A stretch of 64,000 nt of DNA from Escherichia coli (GTDB taxonomy: Bacteria > Pseudomonadota > Gammaproteobacteria > Enterobacterales > Enterobacteriaceae): NCBI RefSeq assembly GCF_030384885.1, contig NZ_CP128613.1, one strand, 5' to 3'. Each line of letters begins with the position of its first letter. Position 1 is the stretch's first letter. The notes under the pieces were generated by a model. The model worked only from the letters and a program-made list of their open reading frames with translations, searched no databases and was not told where the DNA came from. A program made the position numbers and the translations under genes. This document shows positions 19,009-21,261 of this stretch, piece by piece.

Positions 19009-19677
19009 TTAACCGAGAAGGTCTTTTGCGGTGAGTTCTGTCAGCGATGAGAGTTTGACGTTTGCTAATACAAAACGTGGATCATTTTGCGCTTCTGGCG
19101 CAGGAACGACGATGGAACGCATGCGGGCTGCTTTAGAAGCGATCATGCCATTTACCGAGTCTTCCAGCGCCACGCAGGTCAGTGGGTCAACGCCCAGTTT
19201 TGCTGCGCAGTCGAGATATACTTGCGGATGCGGCTTGCTGTAAGGCAATTTTTCAGCCGAGGCGAGGGCATCGAAACTGTCGCGTAAGTCAAACATGGTC
19301 AACACTTTTTCCAGCATATGTAGTGGTGACGCGGAGGCCAGTCCCACCAATAAACCTTGTTCTTTGCATAACGCAACGGCTTCACGCACGCCTGGCAATA
19401 ATGGGTGTGTCTCTTCAACCAGTGAAATGGCACGAGCAATAACCCGTTCTACTACTTCCTGACGGCTTGGACCATTCCAGGGTTGCCGGGCGTACCAAAG
19501 ATCGACCACCATATCGATGCGTAAACCTAAGGTGTCCGGCAGCTCGTTACGACGGGAGATATCCACCCCCAGGCTTGCCATCACATCCAGTTCGGCCCGA
19601 TCCCATAAAGGTTCTGAGTCGATAAGTAATCCATCCATATCAAAAATTGCAGCAAGAATCTGACGCGGGGTTGACAT
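19009..19677 (-). CDS. yniC: HAD-family sugar phosphatase (2-deoxyglucose-6-phosphate phosphatase)
   Basis: 222-aa ORF with HAD motif I (AAIFDMDGLLIDSEP). Confidence 0.9.
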   Translation of the reverse strand: MSTPRQILAAIFDMDGLLIDSEPLWDRAELDVMASLGVDISRRNELPDTLGLRIDMVVDLWYARQPWNGPSRQEVVERVIARAISLVEETHPLLPGVREAVALCKEQGLLVGLASASPLHMLEKVLTMFDLRDSFDALASAEKLPYSKPHPQVYLDCAAKLGVDPLTCVALEDSVNGMIASKAARMRSIVVPAPEAQNDPRFVLANVKLSSLTELTAKDLLG

Positions 19678-19823
19678 TACAACCTCTCCTTTAGAGCATT
19701 ATGTGTAAGGTATTAAGCCGTGCTTATGATTAAGCGCCTATCATATCGCCTTTAAAGAATGGGCGAAAACAGATATCTACAGGTAAACTAAGTGAAACGA
19801 CGCGTCTTAATCAAGGAGAACTC

Positions 19824-20360
19824 ATGACGTATCAACAAGCTGGACGCATTGCTGTTTTGAAAAGGATTTTAGGTTGGGTGATTTTTATACCTGCATTGAT
19901 CTCTACATTGATTTCTTTGCTGAAATTTATGAATACCCGGCAGGAAAACCAGGAAGGCATTAATGCGGTCATGCTCGACTTTACTCATGTCATGATCGAT
20001 ATGATGCAGGCGAATACGCCTTTTTTGAATCTGTTCTGGTATAACTCCCCGACGCCCAATTTTAATGGTGGCGTGAACGTTATGTTCTGGGTGATTTTCA
20101 TCCTGATTTTTGTCGGACTGGCGTTGCAGGATTCCGGTGCCCGGATGAGTCGCCAGGCGCGCTTCTTGCGGGAAGGTGTTGAAGATCAACTCATTCTGGA
20201 AAAAGCCAAAGGGGAAGAGGGGCTAACACGCGAACAGATTGAGTCACGTATTGTTGTCCCGCACCATACTATTTTCCTGCAGTTTTTCTCGCTGTATATC
20301 CTGCCGGTTATTTGTATTGCTGCAGGTTATGTGTTCTTTTCTCTGCTGGGGTTTATTTAA
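19824..20360 (+). CDS. yniB: Uncharacterized inner membrane protein YniB
   Basis: 178-aa ORF with several hydrophobic segments, divergent from yniC. Confidence 0.85.
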   Translation: MTYQQAGRIAVLKRILGWVIFIPALISTLISLLKFMNTRQENQEGINAVMLDFTHVMIDMMQANTPFLNLFWYNSPTPNFNGGVNVMFWVIFILIFVGLALQDSGARMSRQARFLREGVEDQLILEKAKGEEGLTREQIESRIVVPHHTIFLQFFSLYILPVICIAAGYVFFSLLGFI

Positions 20361-20400
20361 TCAAAAGGCCGCACGGAGCGGCCATTATCCTCACCCCATA

Positions 20401-21261
20401 TTATGCTGCTAATAATCTATCCAGTGACTGCTGAGCAATAACCAAATGCTGACCGCCAAATAACCTTGCACGATTTAACAGCGTGTAGAGTTGGTAAACC
20501 GGTTGACGTTCAAGGAAATCGGCAGGTAGCGGGGATACTGACTGATAGCCGTCATAGATTTGTGGCGGCTGTTCAGTATGCAGCGGTAACATCGCCAGGT
20601 CGCACTCTCGGTCACCCCAGTAGCAGGCCGGGTCGAAAATGTACGGGCCATCCGGACCCAGCGCACAGTTGCCGGACCATAAATCGCCGTGCAACAGAGA
20701 AGGCTGCGGTTGATGCGAGGCCAGACGCTGCTGAATATGCTCGACGATGGCATCGATATTGCCGAAAGCGATCCCTTTTTCTGCCGCCAGTTCCAGCTGC
20801 CAGCCAATCCGTTGTTCAGCAAAAAAAGTTGACCAGCGACGTTGCCAGGTGTTGGGCTGGGGAGTTGTGGAGAGCGCGTTATCGAAATCGAGGCCAAATT
20901 GCGGTTGGTCGCTCCATTGATGTAAACGCGCAATTTGCTGACCAAGAATAAATGCGCTATGCGCATCCAGCGGGCGAGGTGGGAGATAATCCATCACCAG
21001 AAAACTGTAGTCACGGTCAGCGCCAACTGCCCAAACCTTAGGCACGGTGACGGTTTTACTACGCGACAGTAACTCCAGTTGGTCGGCTTCGGCGGTAAAA
21101 CCGGGAAGCAGTTCCCTTTCATCACATTTGACGAAAAAGTCACGTCCTGCATAGCGCAAATGCCATGCGGCATGGACTTCTCCGCCAGGCAGTTCATTAC
21201 GCAGTTCGATTTCGCCTTCACCTAACTGCTCGCTCAAAAGACGACTGATTGCCTGCCACAT
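20401..21261 (-). CDS. yniA: Fructosamine/ketosamine-3-kinase family protein YniA
   Basis: 286-aa ORF recognised as YniA. Confidence 0.85.
   Translation of the reverse strand: MWQAISRLLSEQLGEGEIELRNELPGGEVHAAWHLRYAGRDFFVKCDERELLPGFTAEADQLELLSRSKTVTVPKVWAVGADRDYSFLVMDYLPPRPLDAHSAFILGQQIARLHQWSDQPQFGLDFDNALSTTPQPNTWQRRWSTFFAEQRIGWQLELAAEKGIAFGNIDAIVEHIQQRLASHQPQPSLLHGDLWSGNCALGPDGPYIFDPACYWGDRECDLAMLPLHTEQPPQIYDGYQSVSPLPADFLERQPVYQLYTLLNRARLFGGQHLVIAQQSLDRLLAA

Follow-up and report, generated by a model that had tools for sequence, protein, structure and literature searches.

Does the proximity of yniA, encoding an FN3K-family kinase homologue, and hxpB (yniC), encoding a HAD phosphatase, reflect a joint deglycation route, or are the two genes neighbours by descent? 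The window considered here is a 64,000-nucleotide stretch of the Escherichia coli contig NZ_CP128613.1, in which the locus comprises the following features.

18976-19007, − strand: terminator-like hairpin directly 3' of the hxpB stop codon, with a 14-pair stem (8 GC pairs) and a weak T-run
19009-19677, − strand: hxpB (yniC), 222 aa, HAD-IA sugar-/hexitol-phosphate phosphatase (open reading frame list and profile match)
19678-19823, no strand assigned: divergent intergenic region of 146 bp common to hxpB and yniB, presumably containing both promoters
19824-20360, + strand: yniB, 178 aa, membrane protein (PF14002, 252 bits)
20367-20383, no strand assigned: GC hairpin in the gap where yniB and yniA converge, with 6 GC pairs, a loop of 5 and the tail TTTTGATTAA
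20401-21261, − strand: yniA, 286 aa, FN3K-family kinase homologue (PF03881 Fructosamin_kin, 392 bits)
21262-21366, − strand: upstream region of yniA, 105 bp, between ydiZ and yniA
21367-21657, − strand: ydiZ, GhoS family (PF11080, 164 bits; named 'ghoS' by PGAP), the upstream neighbour of yniA

Open reading frames at these positions and matches to PF03881, NF008087 and PF14002 bore out the gene identities given in the first-pass annotation (FN3K-family yniA, HAD yniC, membrane yniB). It had placed yniA and yniC on different strands, which is incorrect: both are on the − strand, with yniB alone on the + strand. E. coli 2013C-4282 matches the stretch carrying the trio at 100% identity and has the genes annotated as hxpB, yniB and yniA; 5423 of the 5426 complete E. 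coli genomes contain the trio. All three are annotated core genes of E. coli and already known. The dN/dS values were 0.027-0.036 for hxpB, 0.04-0.10 for yniB and 0.011-0.025 for yniA. An Rfam scan of positions 18000-24000 gave no match to an RNA family. The gene ydiZ belongs to the context of the locus, outside the proposed route, and is missing from both Citrobacter loci. E. coli reportedly has roughly two dozen HAD phosphatases, so that a HAD gene would lie less than 2 kb from a given gene by chance in about 1 case in 50. The adjacency of a HAD gene and yniA in one genome is weak evidence; their proximity recurs in Enterobacterales and in part of the Vibrionaceae.

Judging by the sequence, yniA and hxpB are separate transcription units in E. 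coli, since yniB lies between them on the opposite strand and a hairpin with a T-run follows yniA. The hairpin at 20367-20383 (centroid fold of −13.4 kcal/mol), with TTTT on the − strand just past the yniA stop codon, is likely the yniA terminator. The first-pass annotation was therefore right that the genes do not form an operon. No consensus sigma-70 promoter was matched in the hxpB/yniB intergenic region (19678-19823), and no − strand terminator was predicted after ydiZ in 21262-21366; yniA may be transcribed from its own promoter, by read-through from ydiZ, or in both ways. In strain EDL933, yniA has been listed among the top 100 RpoS-dependent genes and is the only one of yniA and yniC in that list, while in O157 Sakai both genes were upregulated at the transition to stationary phase, as were roughly a thousand other genes.

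HxpB scored 392 bits on NF008087, the NCBIfam equivalog for 'hexitol phosphatase HxpB' (cut-off 191), and also matched PF00702 and PF13419. The HAD motifs FDMDG, KPHP and EDS were invariant across the HxpB alignment. Its reported substrates include 2-deoxyglucose-6-P, and on psicose-6-P it was the best among the E. coli phosphatases tested. HxpB is probably a broad-specificity HAD phosphatase with an Asp nucleophile and Mg2+, which would strip the terminal phosphate from sugar and hexitol phosphates such as these two in a housekeeping or detoxifying role. It shares its fold and promiscuous phosphosugar activity with YigL, YbiV, YidA and HxpA, the housekeeping set in which it is normally counted; the gene for HxpB lies near that of an FN3K homologue. 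The literature searched contained no report of HxpB assayed on ketosamine phosphates.

The match of YniA to PF03881 (392.5 bits, E 1.4e-117) covered residues 1-285 of 286, and the protein matched PDB entries 3jr1, 6oid, 3f7w and 9cx8 with E values of 4e-71 to 3e-26. The closest solved structure, the putative fructosamine-3-kinase 3jr1 of Histophilus somni (E 4e-71), has HGNLW and NPA, both catalytic aspartates being replaced, whereas YniA keeps both in HGDLW and DPA. Its catalytic set is intact: K45 of beta3, E58 of alphaC, H191-G-D193-L-W195-S-G-N198 and the metal-binding D210-P-A. Human FN3K contacts the substrate mimic DMF through nine residues (I25, G152, D217, W219, F252, N287, H288, H291 and F292). 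The three residues essential in the human enzyme are retained in YniA as V29, D193 and W195. At three other substrate-contact positions YniA departs from it, with S131, H228 and R264 in place of G152, F252 and H288; these columns were conserved at 97%, 96% and 95%, respectively, among 111 diverse homologues, and the changes are specific to Enterobacterales. The human numbering follows a sequence that we take to be that of FN3K, with which 15 of 16 published residue labels agree. The dN/dS of YniA indicates strong purifying selection, similar to that on pfkB. The altered pocket, as read from the alignment, combined with purifying selection is a new result.

YniA would thus appear to have the FN3K fold and to work as an ATP-dependent kinase, its pocket remodelled in Enterobacterales (Ser131 for Gly, His228 for Phe, Arg264 for His). 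In 2007, the purified protein was reportedly inactive on every ketosamine substrate tested, and other bacterial FN3K homologues are said to be active on substrates where YniA was not. Given the remodelling, the real substrate probably lies outside that panel and is probably not one of its neutral ribulosamine, erythrulosamine or fructosamine compounds. A lack of ketosamine kinase activity in YniA, the finding that the first-pass annotation had named as speaking against its proposal, is also what the 2007 result is said to show.

Comparison of loci revealed an arrangement closer than that of E. coli. In Salinivibrio sharmensis, Grimontia, Enterovibrio, Photobacterium and one metagenome contig, the gene for a canonical FN3K homologue is followed after 36-103 nt, on the same strand, by that for an HxpB orthologue. 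The Vibrionaceae loci lack yniB, which separates the kinase and phosphatase genes in Enterobacterales alone. The kinase-HxpB tandem in four Vibrionaceae genera is a new result. These HxpB orthologues scored 298-311 bits on NF008087, the Vibrionaceae kinases paired with HxpB keep the canonical pocket, and the flanks of the pairs are unlike those in E. coli. In nine further species the same 'longest contig' length was obtained for the kinase and HxpB. An interpretation of the Vibrionaceae pairs as operons was downgraded after RNA folding of four of the gaps: three contained a hairpin that was either terminator-like or strong. Grimontia and Enterovibrio have terminator-like hairpins with U-tracts between kinase and hxpB, and Photobacterium has a strong hairpin (−33.7 kcal/mol, z −4.8); the 36-nt gap of Salinivibrio is hairpin-free. 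The Grimontia pair is flanked by terminators on both sides. The kinase occurs on its own, with no HxpB, in core Vibrio, Aliivibrio and Thaumasiovibrio, and no remnants of a decayed hxpB were found downstream of it in these genera even at E ≤ 10. The idea that a degenerate kinase goes with a lost HxpB was rejected: HxpB is missing beside one degenerate kinase (L095/L096), yet it is equally missing beside intact Vibrio kinases.

The wider region is an ancient synteny, including thrS: the thrS-infC-rpmI-rplT genes adjoin the kinase in Erwinia, Ewingella, Thaumasiovibrio and Alteromonadales. Conserved adjacency in this region is therefore not by itself a sign of shared function. In some Enterobacteriaceae the block is broken exactly between yniA and yniB-hxpB. 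In one locus (L006) yniA adjoins tonB and cls; three loci (L100, L104 and L105) carry yniB-hxpB without the kinase, L104 having genes for a TonB-dependent receptor and a thioesterase upstream; and one (L083) has yniA-yniB without hxpB. Either gene can thus drop out of the locus independently in Enterobacterales. Outside Enterobacterales and Vibrionaceae, HxpB was absent from 73 of 74 kinase loci, and the kinase was absent from all 59 distant HxpB-like loci, so that among the loci compared recurrence of the pair is limited to Enterobacterales and the four Vibrionaceae genera. No LMW-PTP cluster was found among the clustered neighbours of 80 kinase loci, which were chosen by canonical motifs from Proteobacteria and Cyanobacteria and are therefore not representative of Thermus or Firmicutes. 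A planctomycete (Fuerstiella) HxpB was 55% identical to that of Photobacterium; on the question of its horizontal transfer with the kinase, a metagenome scan returned no close relatives of the Fuerstiella protein.

Known systems offer partial parallels. The bacterial pairs of Gemayel 2007 (an operon of Thermus thermophilus, and PtpA with ribulosamine 3-kinase of S. aureus) resemble the E. coli locus in having an FN3K-family kinase near a phosphatase gene. However, a module of that type is defined by an LMW-PTP active on ribulosamine-5-phosphates, whereas HxpB belongs to HAD-IA, and by two genes that are adjacent and co-transcribed, unlike yniA and hxpB as predicted here. Mammalian MDP-1 is a HAD-family protein-fructosamine-6-phosphatase and as such, like HxpB in the proposed role, a HAD phosphatase proposed to feed an FN3K-type kinase, but it represents a different branch of the HAD superfamily, and its gene is not known to be linked to that of the kinase. 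E. coli FrlD/FrlB (fructosamine 6-kinase and deglycase) also handle Amadori compounds, as proposed for the YniA route, but FrlD belongs to an unrelated kinase family, phosphorylation is at C6, the pathway is catabolic, and the genes are not encoded in the window.

In the route originally proposed, YniA would phosphorylate glycated amines and YniC would hydrolyse the resulting phosphates or phosphosugars. Gene proximity and the broad phosphosugar activity of HxpB are all that speaks for this order. Ketosamine 3-phosphates produced by FN3K-type kinases are unstable and decompose spontaneously into free amine and phosphate, so their enzymatic dephosphorylation would reverse the repair step, regenerating the damaged amine in a futile cycle. 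The known partner phosphatases, S. aureus PtpA and mammalian MDP-1, act upstream of the kinase on ribose-5-P- or glucose-6-P-derived adducts. The two E. coli genes are, in addition, predicted to be transcribed separately. The partner LMW-PTPs reportedly lack ribulosamine 3-phosphatase activity, just as YniA is said to lack ketosamine kinase activity. Clearance of YniA products by YniC is consequently very improbable and close to refuted. If HxpB and YniA cooperate, the phosphatase must act first: HxpB would remove the 5- or 6-phosphate from Amadori products of ribose-5-P or hexose-6-P, the kinase would then phosphorylate O3, and spontaneous elimination of the adduct would restore the amine. 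Vibrionaceae at a minimum would use this route, and E. coli might do so in modified form. HxpB would then play in gamma-proteobacteria the part that LMW-PTP and MDP-1 play elsewhere. This sequence of events has precedents in ptpA with ribulosamine 3-kinase and in MDP-1. It is consistent with the same-strand pair being kept in four Vibrionaceae genera though the flanks are rearranged, with the hairpin-free Salinivibrio gap and the terminator-bracketed Grimontia pair, and with the induction of both E. coli genes on entry into stationary phase. Moreover, HxpB accepts psicose-6-P, and FN3K-related kinases favour psicosamine and ribulosamine configurations. Against it stand the hairpins within the Grimontia, Enterovibrio and Photobacterium pairs, the kinases without HxpB in core Vibrio, Aliivibrio and Thaumasiovibrio, and the Enterobacterales loci that have lost one gene or the other. 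The reported inactivity of YniA on ketosamines also counts against it. Overall, phosphatase-first deglycation is possible but doubtful. The looser link between the two families suggested by the first-pass annotation thus stands in part: it gains from HxpB lying directly downstream of FN3K homologues in the four Vibrionaceae genera, and loses from the gap hairpins, the general synteny and the independent losses.

YniA might, on the other hand, act on a still-anionic substrate (a ketosamine that bears a phosphate or is bound to an amino acid, or some other metabolite) bound via Arg264 and His228, after which HxpB would dephosphorylate the released phospho-deoxyosone or side-products such as sugar 3-phosphates. 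The change to Arg, His and Ser at three positions that contact the substrate, confined to Enterobacterales, and strong purifying selection on yniA despite the reported in vitro inactivity, agree with such a role, as does the formation of sorbitol-3-P and fructose-3-P by human FN3K. However, the HxpB-paired Vibrionaceae kinases have a canonical pocket, which uncouples the pocket change from the pairing, and we regard this variant as improbable. The related proposition that HxpB is the missing gamma-proteobacterial ketosamine-5/6-phosphate phosphatase and that the substitutions Ser131, His228 and Arg264 adapted YniA to an anionic Amadori substrate is somewhat less improbable, though still unlikely. 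The reading that we prefer, and hold to be about as likely as not, is that yniA, yniB and hxpB are three independently transcribed core genes, neighbours by descent rather than a demonstrated pathway. The proximity of yniA and hxpB would have been inherited from an older kinase-then-hxpB tandem, still present in several Vibrionaceae, while in Enterobacterales yniB and a terminator would now part the two genes. We infer that the adjacency represents inherited synteny and not present cooperation.

The kinase-first route clashes with known FN3K chemistry and, as stated, is an ordinary finding. The Vibrionaceae pairing and the arginine-bearing, lineage-specific pocket of YniA point to phosphorylated or otherwise anionic ketosamines as candidate substrates, and to the Photobacterium or Grimontia kinase as the protein to compare with YniA. 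If the phosphatase does act first, a bacterial HAD phosphatase would join protein-deglycation repair. If HxpB is indeed the missing phosphatase, FN3K-type repair would have recruited a phosphatase independently for a third time, LMW-PTP and MDP-1 being the earlier cases, and anionic re-specialisation would explain the failure of YniA on the 2007 panel and give a function to a long-orphan y-gene of E. coli.

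The region 18500-22000 of the window was 100% identical to E. coli strain 2013C-4282, and the same stretch was found in 5423 of the 5426 complete E. coli genomes. It carries three already known genes, for which profile matches agreed with the RefSeq names (hxpB, yniB, and yniA) and whose ends coincided exactly with the interval of the first-pass annotation:

19009-19677, − strand: hxpB (yniC), 222 aa; NCBIfam HxpB equivalog (392 bits, cut-off 191) and HAD Pfam models
19824-20360, + strand: yniB, 178 aa; PF14002 YniB
20401-21261, − strand: yniA, 286 aa; end-to-end match to PF03881 Fructosamin_kin (392 bits)

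The kinase and phosphatase genes had been placed on different strands, but both lie on the − strand, and yniB alone is opposite. At the hxpB end the neighbours are ydjM and tcyP, and at the yniA end they are ydiZ and pfkB. The ydiZ gene (21367-21657, − strand; PF11080, 164 bits), annotated by PGAP as type V toxin-antitoxin endoribonuclease antitoxin GhoS ("ghoS"), appears to be an orphan paralogue of GhoS. The annotation shows no ghoT-like toxin gene next to ydiZ, neither Citrobacter locus carries it, and it evolves faster than the neighbouring genes (dN/dS 0.12-0.16). The type III secretion effector gene espL1 (24055-25953, − strand) lies between yniD and thrS, so the strain has pathogen-type accessory DNA beside the core block.

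A 40-bp gap separates the convergent genes yniB and yniA and contains the hairpin GGCCGCTCCGTGCGGCC followed by TTTT on the − strand (centroid −13.4 kcal/mol), hxpB can be reached from yniA only across yniB in antisense, and hxpB has its own upstream DNA in a 146-bp divergent region common with yniB. Therefore, yniA and hxpB are separate transcription units, and the earlier statement that they form no operon held. No terminator was predicted between ydiZ and yniA, and no Rfam family matched within 18000-24000. Expression evidence for a link is weak: yniA and yniC are both up in the stationary-phase transition of O157 Sakai, as are about a thousand other genes, and the top-100 list of RpoS-dependent genes in EDL933 contains yniA but not yniC.

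The nearest solved structures to YniA are 3jr1 (Histophilus somni), 6oid (plant), 3f7w (Thermobifida), and 9cx8 (human FN3K). All kinase catalytic residues are kept in YniA (K45, E58, H191-G-D193-L-W195-x-G-N198, and D210-P-A), whereas 3jr1 has HGNLW and NPA in place of the intact HGDLW and DPA. Among other YniA-close FN3K members, the homologous protein P0132 also has HGNLW, and P0137 has HGYLC and QPA; the loci of such degenerate members (L092/L093 4001-4879, L095 3539-4402, and L096 1741-2604) are otherwise conserved. These proteins are probably pseudokinases. Between E. coli and its E. albertii, Citrobacter, and Enterobacter orthologues, yniA dN/dS was 0.011-0.025, as low as that of pfkB (0.018-0.030) and hxpB (0.027-0.036). 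By its intact catalytic residues and low dN/dS, YniA is under selection and probably active.

According to a 2025 preprint, nine human FN3K residues contact the substrate mimic DMF and are highly conserved across >14,000 family members. We mapped them onto YniA with HMMER alignments and our own alignment of 111 diverse representatives. The sequence used for the human numbering agreed with 15 of the 16 residue labels in the literature.

Human FN3K substrate-contacting residues and their YniA counterparts
I25, V29: not scored in the 111 homologues
G152, S131: Gly in 97% of the 111 homologues
D217, D193: kept
W219, W195: kept
F252, H228: Phe in 96% of the 111 homologues
N287, N263: kept
H288, R264: His in 95% of the 111 homologues
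H291, L267: bacterial consensus also Leu
F292, F268: kept

The residues S/A131, H/Y228, and R264 were present in all sampled Enterobacterales orthologues, down to 59% identity, and in no sampled Vibrionaceae or more distant homologue, and the YniA pocket is thus unusual. Four bacterial homologues are reportedly ribulosamine/erythrulosamine 3-kinases, while YniA is said to have been inactive on all substrates tested, with which the Enterobacterales-specific substitutions fit.

HxpB hydrolyses 2-deoxyglucose-6-phosphate and confers 2-deoxyglucose resistance. With psicose-6-phosphate it outperformed the other five E. coli HAD phosphatases compared, and it is counted, like YigL and Cof, among the promiscuous phosphatases of sugar phosphates; no report tying it to glycation was found in the literature searched. 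Its homologues P0469 and P0470 from Planctomycetes (Fuerstiella marisgermanici and a Planctomycetaceae MAG), with 55% identity to the HxpB of Photobacterium and 65% to that of Vibrio rumoiensis, suggest horizontal transfer.

One genome per species was taken for the kinase scan, which returned 80 loci. The order yniA-yniB-hxpB-ydjM-tcyP was found in five of the six Enterobacteriaceae loci, with tonB and cls following yniA in the sixth (L006), and the same block was present in Erwinia and Ewingella contigs. At L083, where the orthologue is 59% identical, the order is yniA-yniB-ydjM and hxpB is lacking. In Escherichia albertii NBRC 107761 (L003, 4549-6203), a 2-kb insertion encoding CobT-like (PF02277) and CobU-like (PF02283) proteins separates yniA from yniB and widens the kinase-hxpB distance. 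The other 74 loci came from Vibrio, Alteromonadales, other gamma- and beta-proteobacteria, and cyanobacteria. In Salinivibrio sharmensis, an HxpB orthologue lies 36 nt past the kinase on the same strand; the remaining 73 had no HxpB, with just a weak, distant HAD gene in L052.

Grimontia hollisae, Enterovibrio norvegicus, and a Photobacterium have this tandem too, their gaps measuring 73-103 nt. Against the HxpB equivalog, the four Vibrionaceae phosphatases reach 298-311 bits; the kinases have the canonical pocket, and the flanks are unlike those of E. coli (hutUH upstream; Zn-ribbon, ribE, and MATE pump genes downstream). The tandem was absent from five Vibrio species, Aliivibrio, Thaumasiovibrio, Salinivibrio sp. 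YCSC6, and a Vibrio-like locus with a degenerate kinase, with no hxpB remnants at these loci, and no core Vibrio species was among the best 120 HxpB homologues. In Salinivibrio sp. YCSC6 (L088, 4917-8873), hxpB's place after the kinase homologue is taken by a convergent glucitol/sorbitol PTS operon (DeoR regulator, GutM, SDR dehydrogenase, and EIIA/EIIBC-GUT), notable because HxpB is a hexitol-phosphate phosphatase. For nine further species, kinase and HxpB gave equal "longest contig" figures (for example, 48,509 bp in P. aquae), which fits linkage without proving it.

The phosphatase scan queried metagenomes with the HxpB alignment and also returned 80 loci. Kinase-yniB-hxpB was found in 13 Enterobacterales-like loci and the direct tandem in one Photobacterium-like locus (L114), while L100, L104, and L105 have yniB-hxpB without the kinase, its upstream place in L104 being taken by genes for a TonB-dependent receptor and a thioesterase. 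For 59 loci with more distant HADs (36-48% identity to YniC), the flanking DNA available contained no kinase; it extended the full 4 kb in both directions at about 24 of them.

The yniA-hxpB adjacency is real and old, and we consider the chances about even that the two are neighbours by descent with separate functions. The first-pass proposal that YniA phosphorylates glycated amines and YniC then clears the products was unsupported and is very improbable. FN3K-type kinases phosphorylate the ketosamine O3, and the unstable 3-phosphate spontaneously eliminates to free amine, phosphate, and a deoxyosone; no phosphatase has to follow the kinase, and one working on the 3-phosphate would reverse repair. 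Known partner phosphatases work before the kinase, removing the terminal phosphate from ribose-5-phosphate or glucose-6-phosphate adducts, as do S. aureus PtpA with a ribulosamine 3-kinase and mammalian MDP-1, a protein-fructosamine-6-phosphatase. Any real cooperation would have to be phosphatase-first. Such a repair link, chiefly in Vibrionaceae, is plausible but less likely than mere descent. In favour of a link, a same-strand, short-gap pair is kept in two orders though the flanks are rearranged. Against a functional link, many Vibrionaceae keep the kinase without HxpB, and Enterobacterales rearrangements break precisely between yniA and yniB-hxpB. Moreover, the Grimontia and Enterovibrio gaps contain GC hairpins followed by U-tracts, and the Photobacterium gap (L091, 4874-4961) a long hairpin without a U-tract (−33.7 kcal/mol, z −4.8, equalled in 0 of 200 shuffles), which could be a repeat element or regulatory structure. 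Only the Salinivibrio gap is unstructured, making co-transcription doubtful in most of these tandems.

The whole region is also unusually stable: thrS-infC-rpmI-rplT adjoins the kinase in Erwinia, Ewingella, Thaumasiovibrio, several Alteromonadales, and L092, and the same reasoning would "link" yniA to thrS. This cluster beside an FN3K homologue (L013, L016, L017, L019, L020, L022, L048, L084-L087, L092, and L098) is an unusually stable gamma-proteobacterial gene order from Enterobacterales to Alteromonadales. A further reading, an altered role of YniA on anionic substrates with HxpB acting on by-products, we regard as improbable. The Enterobacterales-specific YniA pocket and the Vibrionaceae tandem provide concrete, inexpensive experimental handles on the orphan enzyme YniA.
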